From a virus, in the UHGV virus genome UHGV-1370141: DNA of 64,000 bases; one strand, written 5' to 3'. Positions 10,295 to 38,786 of the stretch are shown here, one piece after another (the first letter of the stretch is position 1; each line of letters begins with the position of its first letter). The notes under the pieces were generated by a model. It did not search any database. It was not told the DNA's origin and saw only the letters and a list, made by a program, of their open reading frames with translations. The position numbers were made by a program, and so were the translations under genes.

Positions 10295-10361
10295 TTCTAT
10301 TTCCTTCTTAACAAAAGCCGCGACTAAAGCGCGGCAGTTAGAGAAAGTGTATTTTCACTTA

Positions 10362-12948: not shown

Positions 12949-13024
12949 AATGCCCCCTACCCCCTACCGGTATCCCGAGTAGCAGAATAAAGGGACAATC
13001 TGTAAATTTTAAGTAATACTATGA

Positions 13025-13102: not shown

Positions 13103-13180
13103 GGTAGCCTCCACTATTGTTAGTATCCGTTTCGAAAAGAAACGTGCCCATAGGGGTTGAAGTGCGAGTTCAACCCCTAT

Positions 13181-13203
13181 TCACTTAAGTAAAATATATC
13201 TGA
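13181..13203 (-). promoter_or_regulatory. Conserved promoter-like motif, copy 2 of 4 (diverged)
   Basis: Minus strand TCAGATATATTTTACTTAAGTGA in the divergent intergenic region; a 10-bp hairpin (13151-13180) lies adjacent. Confidence 0.35.
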
Positions 13204-13231
13204 ATCTATTTCCGATCTAAGGAACGACCTA

Positions 13232-14197
13232 ATGGAGAAATCCAGCGTTGATTTTTTCTCAATTGGTATCGTCGCGGAAGACAAACCCCGTGGTACAGAT
13301 CGGGTAAAAGTGATACCAATTGAAACCAACTTTGCGAACCCTACCGTTGTACAATCGGTTTCCTCAACCGCTGAAAAGGTACACGATACTGGGGGTGCTA
13401 CTGACAACCTAACGATTAAAACAGGTAACACGATTACCGCAAAGTGGTGGAAGTTTAATTCCAACCGAATTAATTCCCCAGACGTTAAGCGAGAAGATTA
13501 CGTTATCTTGCTACGTCTAGGGCAAACCGATATTTATTTTTGGATTGATCTGAATTTTGCTAACGTTAAGCGATTAGAAGATGCGGTTTACGCGTGGTCT
13601 GCTGACCCTGAAAACCAGATGGCGGATGACTTGTCGAATGCGTATGTGTTAAACGTCTCAACGATTGACAAACACGTTACCCTAAGAACAAGTATGGTGA
13701 ACGGGGAGAAAGCGGCGTGGTTATTCCAATTCGATAACGCTAACGGGTCGTGGCAGTGCGTTGACCATAAAGGGAATAAGTATTACATTAACTCGGTGGA
13801 AGACGATTTAGGTTTTGAGAACGCGATGCTTTCGAAAGTGAACATCAACAAAGAAGATGCATTCATTTACGCAAAACGTTCGATTAACCTGGAAACGAAA
13901 ACGATTAATGAGAAATGCGAAGTTCGGAATACCGAAGCGTCGAAATCGGTTACCTTTAAAACAGAAACCTGGCTAACTGAAGCTTCTGGTTCAACAACGT
14001 ATAAAACGCCGAACTTCAAGCAAGAAGGTAATGAAGCGATGTTCACCGGTAATTTGGAAGTTGCTAAGAACTTCAAATACGGTGGTACGGGCGAAGGCGT
14101 GGGTATCTTTACGGTTAAGGATGCGGTTATTTCCGGTATTACCTTCAGCGTACACATCCATGACGGCGTCCATGGCCCAACTTCAGGCCCACGCTGA
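13232..14197 (+). CDS. Hypothetical protein (first gene of the rightward block)
   Basis: 321 aa; AAGGA RBS 8 nt before ATG. Confidence 0.6.
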   Translation: MEKSSVDFFSIGIVAEDKPRGTDRVKVIPIETNFANPTVVQSVSSTAEKVHDTGGATDNLTIKTGNTITAKWWKFNSNRINSPDVKREDYVILLRLGQTDIYFWIDLNFANVKRLEDAVYAWSADPENQMADDLSNAYVLNVSTIDKHVTLRTSMVNGEKAAWLFQFDNANGSWQCVDHKGNKYYINSVEDDLGFENAMLSKVNINKEDAFIYAKRSINLETKTINEKCEVRNTEASKSVTFKTETWLTEASGSTTYKTPNFKQEGNEAMFTGNLEVAKNFKYGGTGEGVGIFTVKDAVISGITFSVHIHDGVHGPTSGPR

Positions 14198-20311: not shown

Positions 20312-20324
20312 GGAGAATTTTTTG

Positions 20325-24506: not shown

Positions 24507-24542
24507 GACAGGCTGCCTGCGGGCAGTTGTGTGTCCGTAGGT

Positions 24543-24581
24543 AACCCCTCCCTGTAATGGGGAGGGGTATCCATTTTATTT
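24543..24581 (+). terminator. Intrinsic terminator/attenuator between fiber genes
   Basis: Hairpin ACCCCTCCC-tgtaat-GGGGAGGGGT followed by TTTTATTT. Confidence 0.55.
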
Positions 24582-24601
24582 AAAAAGTAGGAGTCTTTAC
24601 G

Positions 24602-27600
24602 ATGCCGAGAGAAGACGCGGCGCAGTTTAACGGTACGCTAAGCACAGCAACGTACCCTAACCGATTTAATGTGGTCATTCCACCTGAAGGACCTTTTTAT
24701 CGTATCGGATTAAAACTCACAGTAGCCGACGATACCGCGCCTAACGGACGTCGTACTCTGATTGAGGGGTTGGACTACTATTTAGGCTATTACTTTAAAG
24801 AACTCGCAGAAGCTGAACAAGATCAGATTTATGGCGGGTTTATGTTGCTTACTGCAACAGAAATCGAATATGAGATTTTAGGGGTAGCACGTCAATACCG
24901 TGTGCCGCAATCTGAAATCGGGAAGTTCTTAGTTCGTACTGACCTGAAAGACCCACGTAACGTGGACTGGTCTGAACTAATGGCGTATGCGCCGGTTATT
25001 CAGCCTATCGACCCGCCTGCTAACTTAGAAGAAGCGATTCTGAGGGATGAGGTTGTTAAGGCGTTAGAAGACATTCGCAAGAAAATCATTAAGCGTTCTA
25101 CGGAATTAGATGCTGCGTTCAGTGAAGTCACTAACCTGATTTACGAGAACGGGAAAAAGGTTTTCGACGAAGAATTATACCAGCATCACCGTAACCCTAA
25201 CGCGCATCATTACACCACCGATGACATTGCCGCTCTCCCCGTATTAGGACGTGCTGTTGACGCTACAAAAGCGTTTGGGTTGACGATTGACGAGTTGGCT
25301 ACGCTGATGGGTTCAGCGGGTATTGAGCAATCGGACGTTGACCAGTTAATGGGTGAAGCCCTCGGCACCGTTTACGGTCGATGGGGCACCACGAACGGTA
25401 ATGAATTAACGTTTAAAACGTCAGGTGGCCACATCATCAGTATTCGTGGTGATAAGTGGTTAATTACCTCGCCACAACCGTTGGTGATTAAAGCAGACCA
25501 GGACAACAACGAATCGGGTTTAGCGGTTGAATTCAGTGCGGGTCTGAATACGCTTTGGGTTCACTCGGGGTCAGAACAGGATGTATTAGCGCCAGTTTAT
25601 AACTCCGTGTATCTGGTTACGCCAGAAATGGTGAACATGTACCTGACGTCAGTAACGTTGCTCGAAGCAAACGCATATTTCAAAGCGTCAGACACTGTAA
25701 AACCGCACGGTACCGCAAAACAGACTAACCCGGTTACGTTAAACGCGAATATTCCTACAGCGACCGAATCAGTTTATGGGTTGTTCTCGATTACGAATAT
25801 CTCCACGTCTGCGGCGTTAGGTACTGCTATCTCCCAGAAAGCCGTAACCGAACTAAAAGACCGTTTGGACCTGTACGTTGACGATGACTATACCGTTAAC
25901 GGTAAAGGGTTTGTTAAAACAGGTGACAATATGGTGTTAACCTTAACGAAAACCGATTTCGGTATCGATAGGATGGATAACACCACGCCAAGTGCTAAGC
26001 CGGTGACGAAAGCGTTAGCGAACGTGTTGAAAAACAAGAGTTTGAAGACGCACACCCACACTACTGCTGATTTGGATAACGTTCCAATTGGTAGTGCAAC
26101 GGTTGACGGTATCTTACAGCTGTGGGATGCGATTGACACCACTAACGATAAAGCTGTCACGTCACGTCAAGGCTGGTTGTTCGCAAAAGAGATTAAGAAA
26201 GTCTCTGATAAACTCAATACCATCTTACCGGCATGGACGGTAGGTGGTGCGAAGTTCGGTAACAAGAACTTCTTACCTATTCCAGCGTTAGGCAACTACG
26301 CAGGCTACACCAAAAACCAGTCCTACCAGAAAGGGATCGTTGGGTATCAGCAGGGTAAGGTTTATTCACTCCGTAACGGTTCTAACGGCGTTCCAGGTAC
26401 GGAAGCTATCTATTACGGCTATGCTGACATTAACACGTCAAACGCGTTTGTAAATCCGCAGCAAACCTCAGTGAAATATCACCCTGCCGGGATGAGTAAA
26501 TATCCTGGCGTGACCCTAAAAGCGATATTGATTGGTGGGCAGGAAGCGATTATTTGTCTGGGTTCTGACAATAACCGATATTTGGTGCTGTTCAATGGTT
26601 CGATGGACCACACTAAGCACACGGTGGTATGTCGTGTTACGATGCCTATGTACCGTAACGACAACCCCGGCGGTACTACGGAACAGACCTGGAATCCCCG
26701 GCCAGAAGCTGACGATGTTGTGTTAGTTGACGATCACGTTTATCTTCTCCGTTCTTCGGTAAGTAACATTGCTTATGGCGTGGCAGCATGGCGTTTACGT
26801 AAAGCCGATTTGACTACTAATACTGAGTTAGAGTTTGAACGCGTAACCCTAACCGGTGAAATGGGGCAATTCGGAGATAACCTCTGGTTACGATTTGGTC
26901 AGAAGACCGAAGAGTCGCAAACGGGTCAATTCTTTACATTTCTCACGCCGGAGGGTCGTGCTAAATGGACGATCGGACGTAGCTTTGTTCACGGTCCAGA
27001 ATGTAACCACGCCTGTGCTGTACGCGAAAGCGTGATTCGTGTGAACCATATGCCTACTGTGTGGTTTGCAGCGGCCGACGGTACGACGATTAATTTCCGT
27101 CAATGGGCAACAAGTTTTACAATCGATACGTTAACGGGAAAAGTTACGTTAGAAGGAGGCGAACGCTTCCCCATCAAGGCTGATGCTACTACACTCTCGT
27201 TCGCGGATGGTTCAACTGTAGAAACCAGTCGTAAGTGGGGTGGTGGTCTGGCAAACAACCGTTGTTTCGCGACATATGCTAAACCCAACGGTACAGGAAT
27301 GATGCTTTCCTGTTGGCAGATTAACGATGCGGACCAAATGCCTAATGTTTCTATTAAAGGAACACAAGGCAAAGAGCTTTTCGATTATCTGCGTTATGAT
27401 AACCCAAACAACACCTCGGGCGAAGGAACGTTTACCTGGGATAAAGGTCGCGGTTCTATTTATACCATCGGTCTTTCCCATCCGGTCGGCATTGGCGGTT
27501 CGAATAAGGTGTGGTTGTCTAATCCACGTAACCGTTACACCATCGAAGTAGAAGTTGATCCGAACAAACCTTACGATGTTCCAGGTTATGGCGGATACGG

Positions 27601-29785
27601 TCCGAACAACAACCGTCGTGAAGTCGATGCGACGCTTTACGAGCAGCTTAGCTGTATGGCTGCGTGCATGACTCCTGAGGAGCGTCACGGACAGTTAAAC
27701 GGTTGGTATTTGACCAAAGCAGAAACGTTCCCGTATCGCAACATCTACGGTAACTTCGCGTTGTCTTCCGAACGCTTAACGCTAGAAGAAGCCGATCGCC
27801 AGAAAATGATTCGGATGATCGTTGACGGTGCGCCATCTGGTCAAGCAAATGGTTACGCGAACGAACGTATTAGTGCTGCCCATCAAACCGGTAATGCATT
27901 GTTTGCTCTTTGGATGTTGGGTATCAACACCGTGTGCGAATTTGACTTGTTGCAAGTTTCGTGCATGAAAACCTCAAGTAACGGACGTCGAATTCTTGAC
28001 ATCTATTACTTCATGGTGAGTCCATCTAAAGAGAACGGCTACTTACGGTTCAACTCAGCCACCTTTAAGTTGGTGGACTGGTTCTTAGACCTCGATTATG
28101 GTTTAAGTTATCAGTCTCTGAGGGAAGAAGCGGGTAATAAAACGCGACGTGTAGGCCAGCCAATTTTTGCTTCTGCCGACGGTGTAAACTTCGGTCTATG
28201 GCTACCTTATACGCTGACAATACGGAATATCGGGGACCTAAATGCTTTGGGTTACGCTGCGAAGTACACCTTCGACCCTGGGTCGGGTTGGACTCGCGTT
28301 CCTGGTAAGTCACAGTTGCGTCAGATGGCCCCTGCTCATAATCCCGAATCAGGTTGCTACATGGGTGCGGGTAATTGGGACAAGATGGCGTTGATTTTCT
28401 CTAAAGCTGACCGTGTTTTCTGTTCAGGTAACGCGTATACAGCCGCAGAGTTCGTTAACGACACGACGTTCTCAACGGGAGGTCAGGCTGTTATTATTGC
28501 TGGTGTGGAAACAGCGGAAGGTTGGATTCTGTATTTGACAGAAGAAGTCAAATTAGATTTCGGTAGCAGCAGTTACACACTCCCAACGTGGTCTGTGGAT
28601 TTAAGCAGCGAGTTCCCGTCCAATCACGCTAACCAGACGTTCTACGTACACGCTGAGGTGTCGGGTTCTACCGCACAATACCGCATCGGTTTGGAGCAGT
28701 TAGCCGATACTTCAACAAGACTGTTCGTCGGGACAGTAACCACCGATTCCAGCCGTATTACTGATATCAGTATCGACAAAGTAAAACGCTTGGGTCGTGT
28801 AAAAGAGCTGGAAGACCACGCAGCAATTATCGACCAACACGATGTTGCAGCAGCGTTTGACAGAAAGACGGGTCCTCTATTAACGCTGGTTAACAAGCCC
28901 GTTAAAGCACCTACGGCGTCTGCGTCGAAAGGCGAAGGGTATGTTGACGGTCAGAAATGGGGTTCACTGTCTGGCATCACGACGCGTCCTAAGTTACCAA
29001 TTCAGGAAACGTATTCGGGTTATAAGAGTGTGGCCAGAGTAGCGTATGAGAACTGCGCCGACCAATTCTGGCAGAAAGCGGTAGCTGCTAACATTACGAC
29101 AGCCACTGCTTCTGAGAACTCGCAGGCAGCGTCTGCGAACATGAAATGGATAGGTGCGTATACGAAACCGACTACCGGAACGTATGCTTACTTAGCATTG
29201 AGTTTGCGCGTTCAAGTGCCAGGTAATCCAGGAACGGCGAATCGTGCTCTGAAGCTGAGACTTGCTGCACCAACCGGTATTGTTGAAGCTCGGTATGCAA
29301 TAAACCAGGCCGGTGGTACGATGAAAGAGCAGGACGTCACGTTAACCGCCAACCAGTACCTGGAAAAAGAGCACAGTGGGTTTAAACCTGCCGAGGAGGT
29401 TCGTGTTCATGTCACGTTCGTTATTCCGAAGAACGAATATGAAAGTTATCGTACGAAGTTTGGGGCGGTACAGTTGATTGACGTCGAGTCTGGTACTACA
29501 ATCAAACAGGCAGATATTGATACGCCGTTCTTTGTCTTTACGGACACTGAACTGTCTGCACAATCCGGTTTGGTGTATAAAGCGGTCAAGGGTCAGTTTG
29601 ACAATCTCCCGAGTGAACCTACACTCATTGTGCGAGATGGTCAGACCGGAACTAACCCACCGGTGAAATCGTCTTACGCTGACGGTACGCTAACGGTTTA
29701 CGTAGCGACCGCGTACGATGGTGTGAATCCGGCAGAAACTCGCGATATCGACAAACTCCAGTTCAATCTTATGTTTACATCTTAA
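24602..29785 (+). CDS. Giant tail fiber protein (1727 aa)
   Basis: AGGAG RBS; fiber-type motifs TESVYGLFSITNISTSAALGTAISQKAV and HTHTTADLDNVPIGSATVDG. Confidence 0.6.
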   Translation: MPREDAAQFNGTLSTATYPNRFNVVIPPEGPFYRIGLKLTVADDTAPNGRRTLIEGLDYYLGYYFKELAEAEQDQIYGGFMLLTATEIEYEILGVARQYRVPQSEIGKFLVRTDLKDPRNVDWSELMAYAPVIQPIDPPANLEEAILRDEVVKALEDIRKKIIKRSTELDAAFSEVTNLIYENGKKVFDEELYQHHRNPNAHHYTTDDIAALPVLGRAVDATKAFGLTIDELATLMGSAGIEQSDVDQLMGEALGTVYGRWGTTNGNELTFKTSGGHIISIRGDKWLITSPQPLVIKADQDNNESGLAVEFSAGLNTLWVHSGSEQDVLAPVYNSVYLVTPEMVNMYLTSVTLLEANAYFKASDTVKPHGTAKQTNPVTLNANIPTATESVYGLFSITNISTSAALGTAISQKAVTELKDRLDLYVDDDYTVNGKGFVKTGDNMVLTLTKTDFGIDRMDNTTPSAKPVTKALANVLKNKSLKTHTHTTADLDNVPIGSATVDGILQLWDAIDTTNDKAVTSRQGWLFAKEIKKVSDKLNTILPAWTVGGAKFGNKNFLPIPALGNYAGYTKNQSYQKGIVGYQQGKVYSLRNGSNGVPGTEAIYYGYADINTSNAFVNPQQTSVKYHPAGMSKYPGVTLKAILIGGQEAIICLGSDNNRYLVLFNGSMDHTKHTVVCRVTMPMYRNDNPGGTTEQTWNPRPEADDVVLVDDHVYLLRSSVSNIAYGVAAWRLRKADLTTNTELEFERVTLTGEMGQFGDNLWLRFGQKTEESQTGQFFTFLTPEGRAKWTIGRSFVHGPECNHACAVRESVIRVNHMPTVWFAAADGTTINFRQWATSFTIDTLTGKVTLEGGERFPIKADATTLSFADGSTVETSRKWGGGLANNRCFATYAKPNGTGMMLSCWQINDADQMPNVSIKGTQGKELFDYLRYDNPNNTSGEGTFTWDKGRGSIYTIGLSHPVGIGGSNKVWLSNPRNRYTIEVEVDPNKPYDVPGYGGYGPNNNRREVDATLYEQLSCMAACMTPEERHGQLNGWYLTKAETFPYRNIYGNFALSSERLTLEEADRQKMIRMIVDGAPSGQANGYANERISAAHQTGNALFALWMLGINTVCEFDLLQVSCMKTSSNGRRILDIYYFMVSPSKENGYLRFNSATFKLVDWFLDLDYGLSYQSLREEAGNKTRRVGQPIFASADGVNFGLWLPYTLTIRNIGDLNALGYAAKYTFDPGSGWTRVPGKSQLRQMAPAHNPESGCYMGAGNWDKMALIFSKADRVFCSGNAYTAAEFVNDTTFSTGGQAVIIAGVETAEGWILYLTEEVKLDFGSSSYTLPTWSVDLSSEFPSNHANQTFYVHAEVSGSTAQYRIGLEQLADTSTRLFVGTVTTDSSRITDISIDKVKRLGRVKELEDHAAIIDQHDVAAAFDRKTGPLLTLVNKPVKAPTASASKGEGYVDGQKWGSLSGITTRPKLPIQETYSGYKSVARVAYENCADQFWQKAVAANITTATASENSQAASANMKWIGAYTKPTTGTYAYLALSLRVQVPGNPGTANRALKLRLAAPTGIVEARYAINQAGGTMKEQDVTLTANQYLEKEHSGFKPAEEVRVHVTFVIPKNEYESYRTKFGAVQLIDVESGTTIKQADIDTPFFVFTDTELSAQSGLVYKAVKGQFDNLPSEPTLIVRDGQTGTNPPVKSSYADGTLTVYVATAYDGVNPAETRDIDKLQFNLMFTS

Positions 29786-29825
29786 TGACTCGGGACAAGG
29801 ATGTCTCGAATAAAGGAGAGTGGCC

Positions 29826-31025
29826 ATGGCCTCCATTGTTTATCAATATCCTTTAGATTTAACGGGCTCGCTAACGTCTAACGCTGTGGAGCGTCAGATT
29901 ACGTTAGGTACAGGTAAAGTAAACCGTGCTTTTGCTTTTCCTGACGGCCCGTTCTTTGCGGACACGTTCCGTTTACGTGTTGCTAACCGACCGGATGCAA
30001 CCTACGAACGTGGTACCGATTATGAGTTGATTTTTGCACACCCGACTTATGAAAAGCTGACTAAAAACCGCGAGATTGTTATGGCGGTGGTGGTCACTAA
30101 CACAGCGATTCCAACAGATATTACGGTATCTGCGCAGGTCGTTGGTGGACCACAGTCTGCGAACATCGTGGCTATCGAACAGGCGATTGCTGAATTAAAC
30201 CTCGATAACCGTACGGTTGCGTTTAAAGACCTGCGTAACGTACCAGATACATTCCCTTCTGCACCGACGTATAAAGACGTAGGTGACATCTACGGTTTTG
30301 AATATATCATTACCGTATTGGCGGGTATTAAAGATGCGATCAGTTCCGGTGACGCAGTACAGTTAGAGAACATTAAAGCGATTTTAGAAAGCCTGAAAAA
30401 TGACTTCTTAGACGCTTTAAATGCACACATTAACGCAACCGGTAACGTTCACCATCTTGATATTCATCAGGTTAACGGGTTAACAGAAACTGAAATCCGT
30501 GCGCTTATTCGTGACGTCCAGTCTGCCATCGACGCAACGATTACGGAAATCAATGCACTGAAGAAAGCGGACGAAGCTTTAGGTAAACGTATTGACGCTG
30601 TTGTCAACTCTCTGGAAGCGTGGAACGACCAACTTAACGTGGTTGCTCAAAACTACCAGAAAATGGCCTTAGCGTTGGCGAACCTGAACTCGTTAGTGTT
30701 ACAGCTGCAAAAGAGCATTAACGATCTGAACACGAAACTGAATCAGGTTATTCAGCGTGTTGATGCGTTAGAGCAACAGGGTCAAGAAACCGATCAGAAA
30801 ATCGATCAGCTACAACAAAACCTGGATGCGCTTAAACAGCAGGTTAACAATAACACGAACGCAATCAGTCAAGCGAACCAGAACCTACAAAACCACATTG
30901 CGGCAGATGACCCGCACACCGGTTATCTCCACAAGAGATACGGTGGTGTGGTTCAGGCCCCAGTACACGTTAACGCTAACCTGACGTCTCGTGATGACGT
31001 ACAGGCGGAAGCGGGTACGAAATAA
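29826..31025 (+). CDS. Coiled-coil fiber-like protein (399 aa)
   Basis: ATG at 29826 with AAGGAG at correct spacing (track GTG at 29820 is too close); Q/L/N-rich heptad coiled coil in C-terminal half. Confidence 0.55.
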   Translation: MASIVYQYPLDLTGSLTSNAVERQITLGTGKVNRAFAFPDGPFFADTFRLRVANRPDATYERGTDYELIFAHPTYEKLTKNREIVMAVVVTNTAIPTDITVSAQVVGGPQSANIVAIEQAIAELNLDNRTVAFKDLRNVPDTFPSAPTYKDVGDIYGFEYIITVLAGIKDAISSGDAVQLENIKAILESLKNDFLDALNAHINATGNVHHLDIHQVNGLTETEIRALIRDVQSAIDATITEINALKKADEALGKRIDAVVNSLEAWNDQLNVVAQNYQKMALALANLNSLVLQLQKSINDLNTKLNQVIQRVDALEQQGQETDQKIDQLQQNLDALKQQVNNNTNAISQANQNLQNHIAADDPHTGYLHKRYGGVVQAPVHVNANLTSRDDVQAEAGTK

Positions 31026-31034: not shown

Positions 31035-31080
31035 AGGAGGAACTATGCTTATGGGCGTAGTCCTCCTCTTTTTTATTTTA
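31035..31080 (+). terminator. Possible terminator before peptide cluster
   Basis: AGGAGGA...TCCTCCT inverted repeat with large loop followed by TTTTTTATTTT. Confidence 0.4.
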
Positions 31081-31090: not shown

Positions 31091-31483
31091 ATGGCGATTA
31101 GTGTTAAAAACGTACGCGACCGAATCACCAACGTAGAGAATCAGATGGCGACTGGGCCACGCATAGATCCTCAGGTTGCGTCAAAGGCGCACAATGCCGC
31201 AGACTCTTTTTCAGGTTGGACGCCAGGTCGTCTAGACTGTGGCGGTAGCTGTAGCTGGACGTGCTCGAACGGCTGCACACATGGTTGTACGAGTTGTTCA
31301 GGTACGTGTACATCTGTGTGTGTAGGAAGTTGTTCGTCTGCTTGCGGTAATCAGTGTACCGGATGTTCCGCTACATGCTCTGGTGGGTGCACTGGTTGTA
31401 GCGCTACATGCAGCGGTAGATGTTCCGGGCGTTGTAGCTCGGGTTGTAGTGGCGCGTGTGCGTCTTGTTCAGGGCCGACTTAA
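31091..31483 (+). CDS. Cys-rich precursor-like peptide 1 (130 aa; about 21 Cys in C-terminal 80 aa)
   Basis: Leader-like N-terminus then DCGGSCSWTCS... core of C/S/G/T with regular CxxxC or CxxC spacing; directly upstream of radical-SAM gene. Confidence 0.6.
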   Translation: MAISVKNVRDRITNVENQMATGPRIDPQVASKAHNAADSFSGWTPGRLDCGGSCSWTCSNGCTHGCTSCSGTCTSVCVGSCSSACGNQCTGCSATCSGGCTGCSATCSGRCSGRCSSGCSGACASCSGPT

Positions 31484-31507
31484 TTTAACAGATAGGTATT
31501 ATCTCTG

Positions 31508-32419
31508 ATGATAGAATTAACCACACCGACAGTATCCGATCAATTGTATTCTGAAGCAAGAACGTTAAATGTTATTACTACATCCAAATGTAATCTGGAC
31601 TGTAGTTTCTGCGGCGGAGCCTATTACATGCATAGAGAGGATACAACCGCAGAAGTACAAAAGAAAAGTATTATCGAGGCGCTGGAAAATAACCCAACCA
31701 TTACAAACATTCAATGGTCAGGGGGTGAACCATTACTCGCTTCGCGTAAAATTGATACCCTTATAGAAGAGATAAGGGAGAAGTATCCTCGTTGCGATCA
31801 TTACCTCTATACCAACGGTTTAAAGATGCGTAAAACGCATCTCCCGTTGTTAAAGGGTTTCGATAGTATCTTTTTTAGCATGGACGGATTCAAAGAATCA
31901 GAGCGCCCATTCATGCGGATTATCGAAGAAAAACAATACGAGGTTTTGGAGACAATTTACGAGTTGAAAAATATTCGTACTTGGGCAGTCTTGACGCGAG
32001 AACGTATTGGTGATAAACGCTGGTATGAGGATATAATTGCGTTACATAATCACATCTACCATTACGGTTTTCGCGAGATGTCGCTAGTTTTGGACAAAAA
32101 CATGCCAAAACCGTTATCTCCCGATCACGTTATGAACTTTATTTACGGGTATTTTAGAATTCAGGAAAATATAGAAAGACTGAACTCGTCCAATCGAAGC
32201 GAGTGCGCGTTTACGCTAAACGCGTTATTTGATGAACCCTGTAATACATGTAGTCGTTGTTTTCGTATCGAGTCTGACGGTGCCCAGAACCAAGTAAAAA
32301 ATGTTGAAATCGTAACGCAGCATGGCTGTAGTGACTTGGCCAGAAAGGTTGGCTTAGAAGCTTACGATTATATACGACGAGTGGTAGGGGCTAAGAATAG
32401 GATTCCAGCAAAATTGTGA
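31508..32419 (+). CDS. Radical SAM enzyme (paralog A)
   Basis: CNLDCSFCGG (CxxxCxxC with aromatic) and GGEPLL SAM motif; C-terminal extra Cys (CNTCSRC). Confidence 0.75.
   Translation: MIELTTPTVSDQLYSEARTLNVITTSKCNLDCSFCGGAYYMHREDTTAEVQKKSIIEALENNPTITNIQWSGGEPLLASRKIDTLIEEIREKYPRCDHYLYTNGLKMRKTHLPLLKGFDSIFFSMDGFKESERPFMRIIEEKQYEVLETIYELKNIRTWAVLTRERIGDKRWYEDIIALHNHIYHYGFREMSLVLDKNMPKPLSPDHVMNFIYGYFRIQENIERLNSSNRSECAFTLNALFDEPCNTCSRCFRIESDGAQNQVKNVEIVTQHGCSDLARKVGLEAYDYIRRVVGAKNRIPAKL
32102..32184 (+). repeat. 83-nt tract identical to 34620..34702 (gene-conversion tract between radical-SAM paralogs)
   Basis: Identical DNA read by eye; further identical tracts 31572-31630 = 34090-34148 and 31811-31854 = 34329-34372. 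Confidence 0.7.
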
Positions 32420-32480
32420 TATTTTTACAGAGAATGAATTATAATGTGCCTTAGCTGGCACTGAACCAGTAGGTGTTAAA

Positions 32481-32879
32481 ATGGCGATTGGTTTATCTTC
32501 TTTAAAAGCGCGTTTGGATAATATAGATTCTTCCGCGCTAAAAAACACTGGAGCAGTACAGAACTATATTCGTGGAAAGGCTACGAATAATGTCGATCTA
32601 TTTGGCGGCCAACCTAAAAACCATTACGACTGTGGCGGTAGCTGTAGCTGGACGTGCTCTAGTTGTTCTGGTGGTTGTACCGGTAATGCTTCAGGAGGTT
32701 GTGGTTCCTCATGTTCAGCAAACTGTGTTTCTGGTTGTAGTTCTGGATGTTCAGGTTGCTCTAGTTCATGTTCTGGAGGCTGCACGGGGACATGTATAGG
32801 CCAATGTACGACTACATGTACAGGTACATGTAGTCGTACCTGTCATGGTGGCTGTTCACAATCGTGTACGGGAAGATAA
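32481..32879 (+). CDS. Cys-rich precursor-like peptide 2 (132 aa; about 20 Cys)
   Basis: Shares DCGGSCSWTCS junction (32 nt DNA identical to 31234-31265) then Cys/Ser/Gly/Thr core. Confidence 0.6.
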   Translation: MAIGLSSLKARLDNIDSSALKNTGAVQNYIRGKATNNVDLFGGQPKNHYDCGGSCSWTCSSCSGGCTGNASGGCGSSCSANCVSGCSSGCSGCSSSCSGGCTGTCIGQCTTTCTGTCSRTCHGGCSQSCTGR

Positions 32880-32882
32880 GAA

Positions 32883-33092
32883 ATGATAAGTCTTAAAAAC
32901 ATACGCGACAGATTAGTAACGGCAGAAGGGTACATTACCACAGCAGGAGCAAACAACTATATTGCAAACCAAGGTACAGTGTCATCTACTAATAACCTTT
33001 CTGGTTTACCGTTGAGTCACTATAACTGTAACGGTGGGTGTAGCTGGTCCTGTAGCGGTAGTTGTAGCCGTGGTGCTGGCGGTAGTAAGTAG
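32883..33092 (+). CDS. Short Cys-rich precursor-like peptide 3 (69 aa; 4 Cys)
   Basis: Leader similar to peptides 1 and 2 (KNIRDRL; NNYIANQGT), core NCNGGCSWSCSGSCS. Confidence 0.5.
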   Translation: MISLKNIRDRLVTAEGYITTAGANNYIANQGTVSSTNNLSGLPLSHYNCNGGCSWSCSGSCSRGAGGSK

Positions 33093-33115
33093 TAGAAACG
33101 TGTCAGAGGTATTCA

Positions 33116-34003
33116 ATGAAAAACGATTTACATTTAGCATATAACACTACATTTAACCATCCTTTGCAAATCTCTTCTCCAGATTCTGTACGTTATCATT
33201 TAAGTGATGACGTTCGTTTAATTACCATGCTACCTGGCGAATGGCCGAAATTACGGGGCCGTGATATCGTCAACCGTGATAATATCTCCGTAGAAAATAC
33301 TTTTACAATTCGTGATCTGCCGGTCGAACGTGTGATTGTTTTTACAGGAGATGATGAACTTTATGGAATGATTGTTGATGGTAAATACTTCTTCAGTGAC
33401 GGGGTTTTAAATGCTGGTAGCGATTTAGAACTTTTTTTTACACCGTTTGCTGAGCTTGACGCTAAGCCTATGGTTCGCAGATGGTGGAGTCCAGATTACA
33501 TGGGGGCTTTTCCGTATTACTATACTCTTGTTGGTAAGGATGTTGAAGAGTATTCCGATAGTGAACCATACACCAACATTGAAGGTTATCAGGACCTCGG
33601 AATTGCACATTTAGCTGATTTAATGGCTTATAGCTATAAGTTCGAATGGATTCGTGAACGTTCTGTTTGGAAAGCCATTACTGACGACCATGTTATTACG
33701 AAACGTATTCGTAAACCATGGATGCAACATCTTGTTCAAATACGATTTGGCCAAAGTCCAGTAACCGAGGCTGATATTTCTAAACTTGTTAGTTTTTTAT
33801 TGTCTAAGGTTGAATTGACTGATGAAGAAGCCGAAGCTGTTAAGCCGATGCTTGATCGTATTGTGACCTTAGAAGACCTCAAAAGAATGAATAGTCGTTA
33901 TAACGATCTTAATCGGTTGCTAGAGGCGTATAATTCGACAAAGGTTTTAAAACCTGGAGTCAATTTCGACGAAGATCCGTTGTTCGCTATCGACTATAAT
34001 TAA
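33116..34003 (+). CDS. Hypothetical protein within the radical-SAM cluster
   Basis: 295 aa; GAGGT RBS; no recognised motif. Confidence 0.55.
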   Translation: MKNDLHLAYNTTFNHPLQISSPDSVRYHLSDDVRLITMLPGEWPKLRGRDIVNRDNISVENTFTIRDLPVERVIVFTGDDELYGMIVDGKYFFSDGVLNAGSDLELFFTPFAELDAKPMVRRWWSPDYMGAFPYYYTLVGKDVEEYSDSEPYTNIEGYQDLGIAHLADLMAYSYKFEWIRERSVWKAITDDHVITKRIRKPWMQHLVQIRFGQSPVTEADISKLVSFLLSKVELTDEEAEAVKPMLDRIVTLEDLKRMNSRYNDLNRLLEAYNSTKVLKPGVNFDEDPLFAIDYN

Positions 34004-34025
34004 ATAATTAATGGAGTCACCTGCA

Positions 34026-34949
34026 ATGGCGACCAATGCGGAACCAAAATTATCAGATCAGTTATTTGACAATCCAACAATATTAGCCGTTATTACTACA
34101 TCCAAATGTAATCTGGACTGTAGTTTCTGCGGCGGAGCCTATTACATGAATCGTGAAGATTCTTCTCGAGAGTTTCAACGTGACCGAATTATGGAGGCGT
34201 TAGAAGCTAACCCAACAATCACCGAGATTCAATGGACGGGTGGTGAGCCTTTGTTAGCCACTCGTAAAATTGAGGCGTTTGTTGACGAGTTAAAAGTAAT
34301 TCGTCCAGAGCTCAAACATCAGTTATATACCAACGGTTTAAAGATGCGTAAAACGCATCTCCCGTTGTTAAAACAATTTGATAATGTGTATGTTAGCATC
34401 GACGGGTTTGAGTTGTCTGAACGCCCTTTTAAGCGTTTTATTAACGATGGTTGCTACGAAGCTTTAGAAGTAATGCATGAGCTTGAAAATGTTCATACAT
34501 GGGCCGTTTTAACTCGAGAACAGTTGGGTAACAAACGGTGGCATGAAGACATTATTGAGCTTCATAATGCGATCTATCACTACGGTTATCGTACCATGAC
34601 GTTGCTGTTAGACGCGAATATGCCAAAACCGTTATCTCCCGATCACGTTATGAACTTTATTTACGGGTATTTTAGAATTCAGGAAAATATAGAAAGACTG
34701 AATGTTTCCAACTCGAAAAGGTGTGACTATGTCGTAAGCAAAGTTTTTGATGGTGGGTGTAACGTATGCAGCAATAGTTTATGGTTAAGAGCAGATGGAA
34801 CCGAATATCAGTTGCAAAATGCCCCGAGATTATTAGAATCGGGATGTAACCAATTAGCTTGTTCCATCGGGTTAGAAGCCTACGAGTATATTCGACGAGT
34901 GGTTATGGCCAACCGTAATAGTGGAGTATTAAATGAACCAAGAAAATAA
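34026..34949 (+). CDS. Radical SAM enzyme (paralog B)
   Basis: ATG at 34026 has GGAG RBS (track ATG 34011 has none); CNLDCSFCGG, GGEPLL; identical DNA tracts shared with paralog A. Confidence 0.75.
   Translation: MATNAEPKLSDQLFDNPTILAVITTSKCNLDCSFCGGAYYMNREDSSREFQRDRIMEALEANPTITEIQWTGGEPLLATRKIEAFVDELKVIRPELKHQLYTNGLKMRKTHLPLLKQFDNVYVSIDGFELSERPFKRFINDGCYEALEVMHELENVHTWAVLTREQLGNKRWHEDIIELHNAIYHYGYRTMTLLLDANMPKPLSPDHVMNFIYGYFRIQENIERLNVSNSKRCDYVVSKVFDGGCNVCSNSLWLRADGTEYQLQNAPRLLESGCNQLACSIGLEAYEYIRRVVMANRNSGVLNEPRK
34620..34702 (+). repeat. 83-nt tract identical to 32102..32184
   Basis: See paired repeat. Confidence 0.7.
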
Positions 34950-36255
34950 TTACCCGAAACAGTTGACTTACCAGATTGTTACAAACTTGTCGTGTAATTT
35001 GGACTGTGAGTATTGTTACGAGCGTAAATATCCCCGCAATAACAAAGCAGCAGATATTGTAGATTTTCTTCATGCCTGTTTCGAGCGTGATAAAGATTTA
35101 CCAAACGTAGAAGTCGTCATTGACATTATCGGCGGCGAGCCGTTTATGCAGCCTAAGCTTCTAATGGCCGCTTTCGAAACAGCCGAGCAGTTGTGTGAAG
35201 AACATAAACGCCCGTTTATGTTTAGTATCTCTACTAATGGGACATTATTAGATAGGCCGTTGAACAGGGAAATTATTGAACGTTGGAAGGACAGACTTTC
35301 TATCGGGGTGTCTATTGATGGGTTACCTGAGTCGCACGATAAGTACCGTATTTTTACAACGAGTCGCGAAGGTTCTTACGAGGCCGCTGTACGTGGTTAC
35401 AATTATCTAAAAGAAGTAGGTATCGCGGAGCTTGGGGTTAAAGCGACATTTACTTTGGAAACGCTCCCACATTATGCGGCGGGTATGAAATCCCTAATCG
35501 ATTTGGCTGGAGGTGGAACCATTTCTGGTAACGTAACCTTCGAAGACATTATGCCACGGAGTATGGCTACGTCGATAGCGCTACAAATGATGGATGTAGT
35601 CGATTATTGGGTTGAAAAGGGTTTACACACCAACCCACGTAATACCCTATCACATATCATCCCGGAAGGGTTAGATTTCGACACTATCTGGGAACCGAAC
35701 TGGCGGGATCAGCTACTTTACAACGATACTGTACGTTTAAACCCGGAACGCTTGCGTCCGTTCTGCGGGACATTAACTCACATGACTTGTTTAGGGTTTG
35801 ACAGGAAGATTTTCGGTTGTAACCGTTTCATGTCGACTGTAACGTCACGTTCTGCGGTATTTGAGTTAGTCGGTCGTGAGTTTGTTAGCTTAGACGGTGG
35901 GAAACTGCTGGAAGAGATTCAGACGCAATACACCAACTATCCTGAGACGTGCTTAGGTTGTCCGATGAAACACGCTTGTGGTAGCTGTGCAGCAGCTTCC
36001 TACGAGAATGGGGAAGGGACGTTAGAAGACCGTAAAGCGTATCACGCTGAACGTCGTCAATGTGGTTGGACAACTGCAAAATTAATGGTCGCGGAATACT
36101 GGAAACAGAAGATGGGTACAACATCTGTGAAGGATTTCCACGATAATAGCATGTGTTACTGCCCTCGCTGTGTACGTGAACGTGCCCAAAAAGAAAAACA
36201 ATTGAGAGAAGCCAAAGATGAAGCCAATTCTGATCCACAATATTACGAAGCGTAA
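34933..36255 (+). CDS. Radical SAM enzyme with C-terminal SPASM-like Cys cluster
   Basis: CNLDCEYC, GGEPFM; C-terminal FCGTLTHMTC...CLGCPMKHACGSC...CYCPRC; start overlaps upstream stop by 17 nt. Confidence 0.75.
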   Translation: MNQENNYPKQLTYQIVTNLSCNLDCEYCYERKYPRNNKAADIVDFLHACFERDKDLPNVEVVIDIIGGEPFMQPKLLMAAFETAEQLCEEHKRPFMFSISTNGTLLDRPLNREIIERWKDRLSIGVSIDGLPESHDKYRIFTTSREGSYEAAVRGYNYLKEVGIAELGVKATFTLETLPHYAAGMKSLIDLAGGGTISGNVTFEDIMPRSMATSIALQMMDVVDYWVEKGLHTNPRNTLSHIIPEGLDFDTIWEPNWRDQLLYNDTVRLNPERLRPFCGTLTHMTCLGFDRKIFGCNRFMSTVTSRSAVFELVGREFVSLDGGKLLEEIQTQYTNYPETCLGCPMKHACGSCAAASYENGEGTLEDRKAYHAERRQCGWTTAKLMVAEYWKQKMGTTSVKDFHDNSMCYCPRCVRERAQKEKQLREAKDEANSDPQYYEA

Positions 36256-36790
36256 ATTCCGTTTTCTGGAAAAGTTTTTAGAAACTACGAAACTGTTTGG
36301 CTGTTATGTGCAGATTAACGGCGAAGATTTCAATGACGATGTTAAGCGTTTATTAATTCGTCACGGAATCACCGTTGTTATCCCGATGTATTGTACAGAA
36401 CTTACCGAACTTTCTGTGGCCGAAATCGAGAAACAAAATCCAGGCTTTGAACAGCGCGTGCTGGAATTTCCTAAACATAAAATCGTTCTTTTACGCCGCG
36501 CTTTGCAAGAGCCGAGCGTTGAATCTGTTGCTGCTCTAGGTTTATCGTTTCCTGGTGTGACAATTTATGTCACACGAAACCCAGAGTCCACCATCGATGG
36601 TTTTTACGATGAAAGGGAAACTTTTCATAGTTTAGTTTATCCCGAGCTTACAGAAGACGAACGTCAAGGACTACATATTGACTGGGACTCAAATTTTGAT
36701 AGTAAGTTTCGTAAAATCGATTTTGATCTTCTGATCGAGCTGGGTTTAATTAAAGGAGAAGACGAATGCCTGCTCTTGACAAAAGCTTAA
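36218..36790 (+). CDS. Hypothetical protein (cluster-associated)
   Basis: 190 aa; overlaps upstream gene end, translationally coupled. Confidence 0.5.
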   Translation: MKPILIHNITKRKFRFLEKFLETTKLFGCYVQINGEDFNDDVKRLLIRHGITVVIPMYCTELTELSVAEIEKQNPGFEQRVLEFPKHKIVLLRRALQEPSVESVAALGLSFPGVTIYVTRNPESTIDGFYDERETFHSLVYPELTEDERQGLHIDWDSNFDSKFRKIDFDLLIELGLIKGEDECLLLTKA

Positions 36791-37440
36791 TAAACGAAGA
36801 TATTCGCGCCAGATTTTTTAGCCGACTTTCCCCAATTGATCGCCACGGAAACTTTTTGGGTCATATAGGTACTGAAGATCGCGGCAGAACGGGTTTTTGT
36901 ACAATGCTTCATTACAAACTACTCGATGGCATGTCCGATGAAGACGCGTTAGATCAAATGCGTAGTTACAATATGTCAGATATTGAAGCAAATTTCACCC
37001 TGAAAAAAGCAAAAGAGTTCATTTCAGATGTATTGGAGATAGATCTGGATGAAATTCGAAGTAACGTTCGTTCAACAGCACGATATATTTATTTAGATGT
37101 TCAAAAGATCATGAAGGCGTTGGAGTCGCGTTACGAAGCAGAACGTTACGAACCAATTCAGCTGAATGATCGTCATTTTCAGGCTGATGCAATCTCCCGA
37201 CAAATGTTAGGGCAATATATCCAATCTGAAACTGCGCCAGAATATTGGTTGGATACCGCCAATACGCGTTTAGAACCCTTTACATTAGAAGAATGTAAGG
37301 AACTATTGTCCGAGATCGTAAAACGTGATCAGAAACTGCATGGACAAATGACCGCGCAGAAAAAAGAGCTTCGCCTCTTAGCTGAACAGCGTGACTACGA
37401 CACTATCCGTGCACTTGCACTGGAAATGGGATTAGAATAA
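36766..37440 (+). CDS. Hypothetical protein (cluster-associated)
   Basis: 224 aa; AAGGAG RBS; followed by terminator. Confidence 0.55.
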   Translation: MPALDKSLINEDIRARFFSRLSPIDRHGNFLGHIGTEDRGRTGFCTMLHYKLLDGMSDEDALDQMRSYNMSDIEANFTLKKAKEFISDVLEIDLDEIRSNVRSTARYIYLDVQKIMKALESRYEAERYEPIQLNDRHFQADAISRQMLGQYIQSETAPEYWLDTANTRLEPFTLEECKELLSEIVKRDQKLHGQMTAQKKELRLLAEQRDYDTIRALALEMGLE

Positions 37441-37444: not shown

Positions 37445-37488
37445 TACCTACCTCCGTAAAGGAGGTAGGTAAACTTATTATTTTTTTG
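37445..37488. terminator. Intrinsic terminator between convergent blocks
   Basis: Hairpin CCTACCTCC-gtaaa-GGAGGTAGG then T-rich run ending TTTTTTT. Confidence 0.6.
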
Positions 37489-37509: not shown

Positions 37510-38040
37510 TTAAGCAGTAAAACCGTCCAATTCACCGTTGGTGGTGGCCAGGTCAATACGATTATCGACAACCTTCGGTGTAATTACGAAAGTTGCCATT
37601 ACACCCGGTTTATAACGGAGGTTCTGTTCAGTAACGGTGCACGTCACGGTACGCAGAGTGACGTTTTCATGTTCGTCTTTCTGGTCTTCGGTGCTGTACA
37701 CAACGTCACCTGGCGCGATAGCGTCGTCAGGTTTTACTTTGTTGATGTAATATTGTAACCAAGCGCGGAGTTCGTTTTCTTGAACCCAGCGAGACAGATC
37801 ATCAGTTAGTTCAATCCGTCCTACAACACCTGGCTCCAGACGATCGTAATGCAGTTCGATTGCACCTTTGAAATTCTCAGAACCTGGTAGTGCAGTCATG
37901 GTAACTTTGGTATTCTTACTTTCGCCTTCCAGCGCAGTAGGGAGACCAAAGGACACTTCTTTATCAGTAATCTGATGTGGTAGCTCAGTGTTAGCAGCAT
38001 TATAAAGCGCGACCAACATCATCTGGTTAGTAGCGGCCAT
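37510..38040 (-). CDS. Hypothetical protein, paralog of 38112..38648 (C-terminal GELDGFTA)
   Basis: 176 aa; shared NTK(V/I)T(M/L)TA...NFKG...HY.RL and C-terminal GELDGFTA. Confidence 0.55.
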   Translation of the reverse strand: MAATNQMMLVALYNAANTELPHQITDKEVSFGLPTALEGESKNTKVTMTALPGSENFKGAIELHYDRLEPGVVGRIELTDDLSRWVQENELRAWLQYYINKVKPDDAIAPGDVVYSTEDQKDEHENVTLRTVTCTVTEQNLRYKPGVMATFVITPKVVDNRIDLATTNGELDGFTA

Positions 38041-38089
38041 TATCTTAGGTCCTTAATAGAACAAGTTAGAGAAATATCGGGGGAGGTCA

Positions 38090-38099
38090 CCCCCCCCCC
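38090..38099. repeat. C10 homopolymer in conserved intergenic context TCA-C(n)-GATT
   Basis: Read directly; preceded by GGGGGAGG giving a G/C hairpin; about 50 nt upstream of 37510..38040 start. Confidence 0.8.
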
Positions 38100-38111
38100 G
38101 ATTTAACTTAC

Positions 38112-38648
38112 TTAGCCACCGACACCCGGCGCAGTGAAGCCATCAAGTTCACCTTCCAGACCGCCCAGTGCTACCTTCTCAGGAGCTGGGTTGGAATAAG
38201 TGAAAGTAGCAATAGTACCCGCCAGGAATTTAATGTGGCCATCGTTTACTTTGACAGTGTAAACTTTAGCACCGCTGTCGCCTTCGGATTTAACGATAGT
38301 GAGTTCGCTCTCTGCAAACGCGTCATCGACATAACCTTTAGTAACCATTTCTTTGTTCAGTTTGGTTACAATGGCAGAGTTTTCCAGATCGAGACTACCA
38401 GCTTGTTCGTAAGCTTTAGCACCGATCAGGTCTTGGGATGCCAGACGGATATAATGGAATTCTTTCTCGCCTTTGAAGTTCTGGCTTTCTGCCTTGGCGG
38501 TCAGTGTAATTTTGGTGTTACGACCAGCGTCTCCGCTGTGCGCTTCGACAGCACCAAAATCGACATCACCAACCGTCAGATTAGAAGCGGTTGCAGAGTT
38601 TTTAGCAATTACAGCTTCGATGAGCTGTTGTTTGAAGGCTTTAGCCAT
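38112..38648 (-). CDS. Hypothetical protein, paralog of 37510..38040
   Basis: ATG at 38648 has GAGG RBS (track start 38684 lacks one); C-terminal GELDGFTA. Confidence 0.55.
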   Translation of the reverse strand: MAKAFKQQLIEAVIAKNSATASNLTVGDVDFGAVEAHSGDAGRNTKITLTAKAESQNFKGEKEFHYIRLASQDLIGAKAYEQAGSLDLENSAIVTKLNKEMVTKGYVDDAFAESELTIVKSEGDSGAKVYTVKVNDGHIKFLAGTIATFTYSNPAPEKVALGGLEGELDGFTAPGVGG

Positions 38649-38786
38649 CTTTTTTACCTCGTAAGTGGTAGGGGTGGATTGCATAAGAAAGTTATTTTAG
38701 ACATTTCCTAAAATATAGATATGACGGTTGGCAGTAGGCGCTAACCTGAAAAAATAATTTTTCTTAATTTTAATAAGGGTGAGTTT

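Follow-up and report, generated by a model that had tools for sequence, protein, structure and literature searches.

Why should a jumbo phage carry three radical S-adenosylmethionine (radical-SAM) enzymes and a set of cysteine (Cys)-rich proteins directly behind its tail-fibre genes? We pursued this question in a 64,000-nucleotide stretch of the virus genome UHGV-1370141 (hereafter, the window), which derives from an SPN3US-like jumbo phage and in which nine plus-strand open reading frames (ORFs) occupy positions 31091-37440. An earlier interpretation made from the letters alone, referred to here as the sequence-only reading, had taken this cluster for a candidate pathway to a peptide that is made on ribosomes and modified after translation (RiPP); we confirmed all nine of its ORFs at unchanged coordinates. 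Taking the evidence together, we favour, at a probability of roughly 55%, a tail-fibre-linked maturation module, in which RiPP-like enzymes covalently cross-link a structural protein associated with the fibres. The module comprises the following genes.

31091-31483, plus strand: pepA, 130 residues, 21 Cys
31508-32419, plus strand: rSAM-S1, small radical-SAM enzyme, 303 residues
32481-32879, plus strand: pepB, 132 residues, 20 Cys
32883-33092, plus strand: pepC, 69 residues, 4 Cys
33116-34003, plus strand: unk295, conserved accessory protein, homologue of SPN3US gp165
34011-34949, plus strand: rSAM-S2, 312 residues, orthologue of SPN3US gp164
34933-36255, plus strand: rSAM-L, radical-SAM/SPASM enzyme, 440 residues, orthologue of SPN3US gp163
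36218-36790, plus strand: unk190, homologue of SPN3US gp162, overlapping and translationally coupled
36766-37440, plus strand: unk224, DUF4376-domain protein, homologue of SPN3US gp161

At 6 nucleotides (nt) upstream of its start, pepA has an AAGGA ribosome-binding site, and the reading frames of rSAM-S2, rSAM-L, unk190 and unk224 overlap by 17-38 nt.

Three Cys-rich paralogues share an invariant junction

The products of pepA, pepB and pepC are paralogues with a common N-terminal segment (MAISLK..R...). In pepA, about 49 N-terminal residues lead into the junction CGGSCSWTCS, which is followed by a core built of CXXX and CXX units. The N-terminal segment of pepB ends ...KATNNVDLFGGQPKNHYDCGGSCSWTCS, and pepC combines the segment and junction seen in pepA and pepB with only 4 Cys. 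The Cys counts of 21, 20 and 4 and the shared junction had been listed by the sequence-only reading and hold up under comparison, the junction C-x-G-x-C-S-(W/F)-x-C being invariant in 22 paralogues and orthologues (invariant positions in pepB numbering: G43, C51, G53, C55-S56, C59 and C62). The number of Cys in pepA is 21 in 13 out of 13 orthologues examined, and a 4-Cys, pepC-type ORF was found in all nine relatives checked. Across homologues, the Cys residues are spaced by 4 in 270 cases and by 3 in 47, and the core is composed of 27% Ser, 27% Cys, 25% Gly and 11% Thr.

Nucleotide differences from three related phages, counted at codon positions 1/2/3, amount to 34/26/76 for pepA and 21/17/46 for its Cys core. 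This concentration at third codon positions indicates that the Cys-rich frames are real genes. Among the PHROGs families, phrog_6085 is matched by pepA at 4.9e-40 and by pepC at 1.5e-24. pepB gave weak matches to the NCBIfam models TIGR04114 and TIGR04117 (E = 0.004), and the TIGR04114 score of pepA and pepB is likewise weak, at 17.6 bits versus a cut-off of 20.

The module has a fixed position in SPN3US-like phages

Synteny of the module extends over Seoulvirus, Derbicusvirus and Wellingtonvirus, where it always lies downstream of the gp168/gp167 fibre genes. The common order runs from the giant fibre protein and a 400-residue virion protein through pepA, pepB, pepC, unk295, the small radical-SAM enzyme, the large radical-SAM enzyme and unk190 to unk224. 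The same order was found in Salmonella phage SPN3US (genes 168 to 161), in the Erwinia phages pEa_SNUABM_29, Wellington, EarlPhillipIV and Phobos, and in Cronobacter phage CR5; in these six phages, the module is located between the gp168/gp167 fibre genes and tail-assembly genes. Searching with tblastn returned the leader-like part of pepA from 60 phage records and the full-length large enzyme from 64. We therefore regard the cluster as a conserved core module of SPN3US-like phages.

A horizontally acquired moron, as the sequence-only reading had suggested, is not what these data describe. The cluster is indeed more AT-rich than the fibre genes, with a guanine-plus-cytosine (GC) content of 42.4% versus 48%; however, the mean over 1-kb windows of the whole stretch is 45.0 +/- 2.9%, with extremes of 38 and 50%, and the cluster, although below its neighbours in GC, is thus no outlier. 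Because synteny is conserved across at least three SPN3US-like genera and GC is unremarkable, we reject a recently acquired moron.

GenBank records usually lack the Cys-rich genes or mis-call them. In SPN3US, gp166 (SPN3US_0166) represents the +1, and hence wrong, frame of pepB, with no annotation for pepA or pepC (loci L002/L003, 4094-5123; NC_027402/JN641803); in pEa_SNUABM_29 (L001, 6098-7120) and Phobos (L007, 4151-4948), low-complexity ORFs on the opposite strand are annotated instead. These gaps bear on the SPN3US virion proteome of 86 proteins, in which gp167 and gp168 are present and gp161-gp165 were not detected (PMC5694885 Supplementary Table 1; PMC5105663). There, gp168 was assigned to the tail, as it is absent from a tailless mutant, and gp167 carries no head label (PMC5694885; PMC5105663). 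The absence of gp161-gp165 from virions fits enzymes and helpers (chaperones) acting on a structural product. The proteins encoded by pepA, pepB and pepC could not have been detected in that study, because their ORFs were unannotated or called in the wrong frame and so did not enter the search database. In SPN3US, the three ORFs lie on the complementary strand of NC_027402 at approximately 143828-144220, 143413-143817 and 143191-143397. Their N-terminal parts would yield ordinary tryptic peptides, such as VQIVEANMATGPR, IDAQVASK and FGGWTK from pepA, and NTTNVQNYIR and ATNNADLFAGQGR from pepB.

Cys tails also terminate longer fibre-like proteins

Distant relatives of rSAM-L, with 31-40% identity, occur in bacterial genomes, two of which we inspected. 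In Campylobacter pinnipediorum, the enzyme resides within a P2-like prophage, in the order baseplate W, J and I, a Cys-tailed tail fibre, a 250-residue ORF (the unk295 homologue), rSAM-L, rSAM-S, sheath and tube. The Cys-tailed protein is a recognised tail fibre, matching PF12571 at 1.8e-40 and tail PHROGs with values as low as 1e-55, and its last 40 residues read ...GCNGCSGSCSGSCSSGCTACSGCSGSCSGKSDGCGCRHS. In a prophage of Deferribacter abyssi, a GpJ-like protein is followed by two small ORFs, a 302-residue Cys-tailed protein, a 250-residue ORF, rSAM-S and rSAM-L. The 302-residue protein contains fibre-type repeats and 29 Cys in all; its ending contains ...KATNADQLGGQAGSYYRCSDCSWTCSSSCTGSC... 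and ...KATNADQLGGQAGSYYRCSDCSWTCSS, and its only Pfam match is 'phage tail repeat like', below cut-off.

Pairwise comparison linked this prophage to the window gene by gene. The junction of pepB and that of the Deferribacter fibre-like protein are 56% identical over 36 residues (2e-5), unk295 is homologous to the 250-residue ORF (4e-10), and rSAM-S2 is homologous to the small enzyme (1e-14). Further variants were seen in phage loci: a 568-residue fibre-like protein of a 213-kb phage contig (L023) has the window's junction and carries its Cys tail at the end, and in a 937-residue multidomain protein (L027) the repeat is internal, flanked by one domain on its N-terminal side and by a repeat domain on its C-terminal side. 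The 'leader' and junction of the window proteins thus correspond by homology to a stretch that longer fibre-like proteins carry ahead of their Cys tail, which makes the leader-peptide interpretation put forward by the sequence-only reading doubtful.

A profile of pepA, pepB and pepC, run against 1.84 billion representatives, matched 659 proteins at E <= 1e-3, of which 98 reached E <= 1e-10, with lengths from 60 to ~1800 residues. Many of the matched proteins are 250-310 residues long and show a junction of the form ...NA..L.G.....YYRC.N.CSWTCS... ahead of a CXXX tail. In loci chosen by this peptide profile, a four-gene set consisting of the Cys-tailed protein, the 250-residue ORF and the small and large enzymes was present in two out of three contexts, the third contig ending at the gene; in one such locus (L096), the set lies downstream of capsid and adaptor genes.

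As a separate observation, the proteins P0292-P0298 (1582-1803 residues) have C-terminal CXXX-repeat regions with 8-14 stretches matched by the pepA/B/C profile; the region covers ~600 residues in P0292, the sole one read.

The large enzyme is nearest to thioether-forming maturases

Profile hidden Markov models bore out the radical-SAM identity that had been proposed for the three enzymes. With Pfam PF04055 (Radical_SAM), they score 50.4, 52.8 and 56.0 bits, above the gathering cut-off of 29.5, with E-values of 3.7e-13 for rSAM-S1, 7e-14 for rSAM-S2 and 6.9e-15 for rSAM-L. The CX3CX2C motif reads CNLDCSFC in both small enzymes and CNLDCEYC in rSAM-L.

For rSAM-L, the best NCBIfam match is TIGR04115 (1.8e-34; 119.8 bits, below the equivalog cut-off of 350), followed by the ranthipeptide maturase PapB (1.5e-32). 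When compared with solved structures, the rSAM-L family profile aligns with CteB (5wgg) at 5.9e-38; the aligned part begins at CteB residue 97 and spans the core and SPASM region. Second among solved relatives comes the anaerobic sulfatase maturase (anSME, 4k37) at 5.4e-19. Since the alignment starts at residue 97 of CteB, the phage enzyme lacks the N-terminal recognition domain of CteB; likewise, its CX3CX2C motif lies at residues 21-28, leaving no room for an N-terminal RiPP recognition element (RRE) domain. Seven C-terminal Cys (C278, C296, C340, C343, C349, C352 and C377) do not vary among 18 diverse relatives and form a SPASM-type pattern. No Pfam SPASM match was obtained for rSAM-L at E <= 0.1, so that the SPASM assignment, which agrees with the sequence-only reading, rests on this motif and the CteB alignment.

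The proposed sactipeptide or ranthipeptide layout stood in part. The nearest families (TIGR04115, PapB and CteB) are indeed thioether-forming maturases, and Cys-rich substrates are adjacent; however, scores stay below the specific cut-offs, with 55.2 bits versus 425 for TIGR03974 (ScfB/CteB-type maturase), and no SCIFF precursor match was found. Models of the QhpD and anSME families, TIGR03906 (4.7e-16) and TIGR03942 (2.9e-15), also match rSAM-L below cut-off.

The two small enzymes are 60% identical to each other. Their family conserves CX3CX2C, GGEP, C250 and G278-C279, with C253 present in most sequences; in rSAM-S1, the corresponding motifs are CNLDCSFC, GGEP and a C-terminal CNxCS...GC. 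The conserved C-terminal Cys thus number two or three, PDB matches cover mainly the core, and NCBIfam and PDB profile searches returned no close characterised relative. rSAM-S1, located between pepA and pepB, is an extra paralogue found in the window phage only: among 50,697 phage records its best match is 55% identical, each record holds one small-enzyme copy, and pepA and pepB are adjacent in all relatives, with no second small enzyme inserted.

Two candidate relationships were tried and dropped. An identity as anti-phage defence or viperin-like proteins was rejected, as PADLOC gave only partial pVip matches of 31-47 bits to the N-terminal half to two-thirds of each enzyme, reflecting generic viperin-core similarity. 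Radical-SAM genes of Campylobacter and Vibrio phages returned by tblastn matched in the N-terminal core only (29% of the query) and were set aside as unrelated. Separately, we observed that the large enzymes of SPN3US-like phages end in an extension of ~60 residues (36160-36255 in the window) with an extra C-x-C-x-x-C (..SMCYCPRCVRE..), which is absent in more distant aligned relatives.

Accessory genes include no release or export functions

unk295 showed no PqqD-like fold match and is a candidate substrate-handling partner. unk190 matches phrog_7988 at 9.4e-56, gave no Pfam, NCBIfam or PDB sequence match, and has homologues, within this analysis, in the SPN3US-like clade only. unk224 matches Pfam PF14301 (DUF4376) at 9.7e-7, with 29.7 bits versus a cut-off of 25, and phrog_8169; in addition, it has weak matches to tail-fibre and virion PHROGs (E of 0.005-0.008), and no PDB sequence or NCBIfam match. 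In agreement with the sequence-only reading, which had noticed no exporter or leader protease, searches of Pfam, NCBIfam and PHROGs found no protease, exporter or immunity gene in or beside the module. An RRE domain was not found in the module either, by Pfam, NCBIfam and PHROGs, at the rSAM-L N-terminus or in the unk295 fold search.

Enzyme and CXXX repeat are paired across viruses and gut metagenomes

With the rSAM-L alignment as query, a scan of IMG/VR yielded 220 confirmed relatives, and we retrieved 80 loci. rSAM-L itself is 100% identical over its full length to the protein of contig IMGVR_UViG_3300045988_078609 (224,831 bp). A CXXX-repeat ORF lay beside the enzyme in 72 of these 80 viral loci. 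Over 1.07 Mb of related viral loci, all 84 CXXX-repeat ORFs shared the strand of the enzyme and 83 lay no more than 3 kb away from it, and a repeat filter run over the 64-kb window matched pepA and pepB only; the pairing of enzyme and repeat is therefore not a chance effect. The CXXX-repeat ORFs at these loci are 40-937 residues long and contain up to 126 Cys.

Within a gut-phage branch, the enzymes (L008, P0203, P0221 and P0189) come closer to TIGR04115, at 295-313 bits, still below the cut-off of 350. One cluster of this branch already carries the automatic name 'radical SAM peptide maturase, CXXX-repeat target family [Caudoviricetes sp.]', and a single gut-phage enzyme matched 771 protein clusters at E <= 1e-20 in gut metagenomes. 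The accessory ORFs of the branch, of 200 and 95 residues, have no Pfam matches and are unrelated to unk295, profile comparison having given a probability of 0.2. The Cys-rich gene is often located directly 3' of a tail-fibre gene (PHROG matches strong in L073, L090 and L029, weak in L041 and L085), and in L008 the module lies between baseplate and fibre-like ORFs. Similarly, a P2-like prophage in a Faecalibacterium metagenome-assembled genome (L093) shows the order tape measure, X, U, J, I, a 427-residue ORF, the CXXX protein, two small ORFs, the radical-SAM enzyme and a fibre-like ORF, its CXXX protein scoring 46 bits with TIGR04114 (cut-off 20) and its enzyme 313 bits with TIGR04115.

Several observations at these loci stand on their own. 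In L093, a reverse-transcriptase gene (RVT_1, 12680-13801) directly follows the fibre-like ORF downstream of the module and may belong to a diversity-generating retroelement aimed at the same fibre region. In four IMG/VR gut contigs (L028, L062, L064 and L076), ORFs called near the enzyme with genetic code 11 are short and fragmented and the radical-SAM gene is split, a fragmentation that suggests stop-codon reassignment. A 246-kb contig (L089, IMGVR_UViG_3300042922_000542) carries at 1952-11260 at least three radical-SAM genes and Cys-rich ORFs of 140, 551 and 421 residues with 13, 52 and 78 Cys, the 140-residue ORF having a CxCxC-type pattern. This locus recalls the Aeromonas giant phage 332-Vera, in which eight radical-SAM genes lie in a structural/tail-fibre cluster, a finding that its authors called 'highly unusual' and left unexplained (PMC12390700).

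A proposed maturation route and its alternatives

In the route that we propose, pepA, pepB and pepC would encode small fibre-type proteins, each consisting of a short helical N-terminal segment, the junction (G-x7-C-x-G-x-C-S-W/F-x-C) and a CXXX-repeat domain of fixed length. Late in infection, in the reducing cytoplasm, rSAM-L would employ a 5'-deoxyadenosyl radical and its auxiliary clusters to bond Cys sulfurs to carbons of neighbouring residues, forming thioether bridges like those made by CteB and PapB again and again along the repeat. rSAM-S1 and rSAM-S2 would carry out a second reaction or handle a subset of the substrates, and unk295 would take the place of the missing RRE domain and present the substrate. 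No leader would be cleaved. The cross-linked product would keep its N-terminal segment and, at the peripheral fibres (gp167-gp170 region), become an integral or attached rod or tip that is rigid, resists proteases and is insensitive to redox conditions. With disulfides unavailable in the cytoplasm, a radical route there would be reasonable. That each pepA examined has 21 Cys points to an object whose length is set, and finding neither a protease nor an exporter nor an RRE is in keeping with a product that is never set free. Of the two products considered by the sequence-only reading, a hyper-stable virion component fits the evidence better, and a peptide directed against the host or competitors fits less well.

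A more far-reaching version, to which we give somewhat less than even odds, holds that a thioether ladder in a Cys-rich rod or tip of tail fibres is spread over jumbo phages, P2-like and lambda-like prophages and abundant human-gut phages, in which case TIGR04115 and TIGR04114 would largely describe the maturation of phage structural proteins and not a natural-product pathway.

Several results weigh against a fibre maturation module. That the Cys-rich proteins are part of the virion, and that they are modified, is what we infer from sequence data. The only PHROG matched by the 69-132-residue window proteins is phrog_6085, a family of unknown function, and an AlphaFold2 model of pepB, based on a 22-sequence alignment, reached a mean predicted local distance difference test score (pLDDT) of 42.5, showing weak N-terminal helices only and leaving the Cys core unmodelled. 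The N-terminal domains of ten family representatives match no tail PHROG at E <= 1e-5, so that the fibre assignment rests on gene context and the Campylobacter fusion. Nor is the fibre link universal: five out of ten immediate upstream neighbours match tail-fibre PHROGs, two of them weakly; in a 269-kb gut contig (L092, 7510-10305) the module adjoins thymidylate synthase and dihydrofolate reductase genes; and in a 279-kb contig (L025, 5883-9074) the enzyme pair follows a helicase, next to a 97-residue ORF ending GCESCAMGCHGPQ with three Cys. On the enzyme side, rSAM-L is a distant TIGR04115 relative whose chemistry could differ from that of the family, and anSME, its second-best solved relative, oxidises Cys or Ser and forms no cross-links.

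Part of this list could be accommodated by a classical RiPP pathway, in which the leaders of pepA, pepB and pepC are removed and the cross-linked cores, freed at lysis, target the host or rival bacteria or phages. The window proteins, short and free-standing, with a conserved N-terminal part and a repetitive core, also have the format of RiPP precursors; the enzymes are nearest to peptide maturases; and the L025 ORF, with its minimal 3-Cys C-terminus, sits beside the same enzyme pair in a non-tail context. We nevertheless consider this pathway unlikely, as neither a protease, exporter or immunity gene nor an RRE was found, different genera keep the genes at one place in the fibre module, and the supposed leader and junction have their homologous counterpart ahead of the Cys tail in proteins of 250-570 residues, the Campylobacter Cys tail forming the end of a tail fibre. 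A different departure would concern the chemistry, with no thioethers made at all: the enzymes might convert Cys to formylglycine or dehydro residues, epimerise or methylate, or the repeat might be a metal- or Fe-S-binding rod like some fibre tips. Regularly spaced thiols are good metal ligands, the anSME similarity (5.4e-19) points in this direction, the window enzyme scores well below every curated family cut-off, and the small enzymes, to which no characterised protein is closely related, carry fewer C-terminal Cys. Set against this, the top matches are, by a wide margin, the thioether-forming CteB and PapB and the CXXX-repeat families, and the residues between the Cys are almost only Ser, Gly and Thr, acceptor residues of the type used in known sactipeptides and ranthipeptides, which leaves such alternative chemistry improbable.

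An outside chance remains with transient assembly factors, that is, with Cys-rich chaperones or scaffolds for the gp168-gp170 and gp167 fibres that are not retained in the virion and are tuned by the enzymes. The module occupies the slot in which P2-like phages normally encode a fibre assembly chaperone, tail-assembly-chaperone genes lie just downstream in relatives, unk224 combines DUF4376 with weak tail-fibre PHROG matches, and three Cys-rich paralogues face three giant fibre paralogues. However, the Cys tail fused to the Campylobacter fibre would stay there unless cleaved, with no cleavage domain evident, and the repeat of L027 is internal, between two domains of one protein. Both features weigh against transient factors, and a cross-linked fibre component remains the reading that we prefer.

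Boundaries and neighbouring genes

The module is framed by the following features.

24602-29785, plus strand: gp168-like giant baseplate/fibre protein, directly upstream of the module, assigned by synteny with SPN3US_0168
29820-31025, plus strand: gp167-like 401-residue virion protein with coiled coil, directly upstream of the module, assigned by synteny with SPN3US_0167
31035-31079, plus strand: hairpin AGGAGGAACTA...TAGTCCTCCT followed by a T-run, read in the sequence, with the inner stem at 31042-31061 taken from a terminator scan
37445-37471, no single strand: bidirectional hairpin TACCTACCTCC-GTAAA-GGAGGTAGGTA, ending the plus-strand unit and facing converging minus-strand genes

The hairpin and T-run at 31035-31079 match the terminator-like structure that had been noticed behind the fibre genes. 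Pfam matches of the 401-residue protein are to coiled coils only. Further upstream, the window holds three giant fibre/baseplate paralogues in all (15986-29785; homologues of SPN3US gp170, gp169 and gp168), compared with three Cys-rich paralogues at 31091-33092; a one-to-one pairing, or a heterotrimer, of giant fibres and pepA/B/C is conceivable.

Beyond the module, two adjoining minus-strand paralogues (37510-38040 and 38112-38684) both end in ELDGFTA. By position and size, the one at 37510-38040 corresponds to SPN3US gp160, of which SPN3US has one copy at this place and the window two; SPN3US gp160 is an abundant head protein of 'paralog family B' (PMC5694885). A terminator-like hairpin with a run of ten G (ATCGGGGGGGGGGTGACCTCCCCCGAT; 38076-38102, minus strand) lies between the two head-protein paralogues, and this homopolymer could be prone to slippage.

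Significance and comparison with known systems

If the proposed route is correct, radical-SAM/SPASM 'peptide maturases' would gain a second role in the building of virus particles, and phage fibres would be seen to use a new type of covalent reinforcement, made in a reducing cytoplasm where disulfides cannot form. It would also supply a function for a database family found in great abundance in gut metagenomes and explain puzzling radical-SAM genes in the structural clusters of giant phages, such as the eight of 332-Vera (PMC12390700). Attention is also drawn to three conserved genes that the reference annotations of SPN3US and related phages omit or call incorrectly. For RiPP genome mining, the locus would advise caution, as a Cys-rich ORF beside a SPASM enzyme need not encode a secreted natural product.

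The closest known counterpart is the CXXX-repeat system (TIGR04115 with TIGR04114/TIGR04117; Pfam PF27846), in which a SPASM-type enzyme likewise adjoins a protein with a C-terminal CXXX run. Such a target stands beside the enzyme in the window as well, where pepA and pepB have 20-21 Cys at a spacing of mostly 4; unlike that system, the window adds one or two small radical-SAM enzymes and unk295. The pairing of CXXX-repeat target and SPASM maturase is thus already known, by bioinformatics only, and its phage-fibre setting was previously unremarked: going by the model names, a tail-fibre link does not form part of the family description. A literature search, with most subscription journals outside its coverage, returned no paper on the product or role of the CXXX-repeat family and none linking CXXX-repeat/SPASM enzymes to phage fibres.

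CteB (SCIFF/thermocellin, PDB 5wgg) and PapB (freyrasin) resemble the window system in combining a radical-SAM core with SPASM and two auxiliary clusters and in acting on Cys-rich substrates, which in freyrasin also have regularly spaced Cys. In contrast to rSAM-L, CteB has an N-terminal RRE of ~95 residues. The window substrates, in turn, have at least 20 Cys, show no CX3D or SCIFF motif and come without a leader protease or exporter, and substrates of this module type can be proteins of 250 to ~1800 residues. The general definition of a RiPP also fits poorly, since no protease or RRE was found and the 'leader' is homologous to a segment of larger proteins.

In its proposed logic, the module is closer to QhpD, which acts on the gamma subunit of quinohemoprotein amine dehydrogenase, and to anSME, as these SPASM enzymes modify Cys in a protein that is kept in a larger assembly. 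They differ in that the similarity is distant, that they act on few specific Cys and no long repeat, and that their substrates are cellular enzymes and not virion parts. Among phages, cyanophage Pam3 anchors its tail fibres by disulfides that form spontaneously between a few Cys (PMC9942802). The functional goal, robust attachment of a fibre or a robust tip, would be the same in both phages, with no sequence relationship between them; in the window phage, however, dedicated radical enzymes would install irreversible bonds while the fibre components are still in the cytoplasm.

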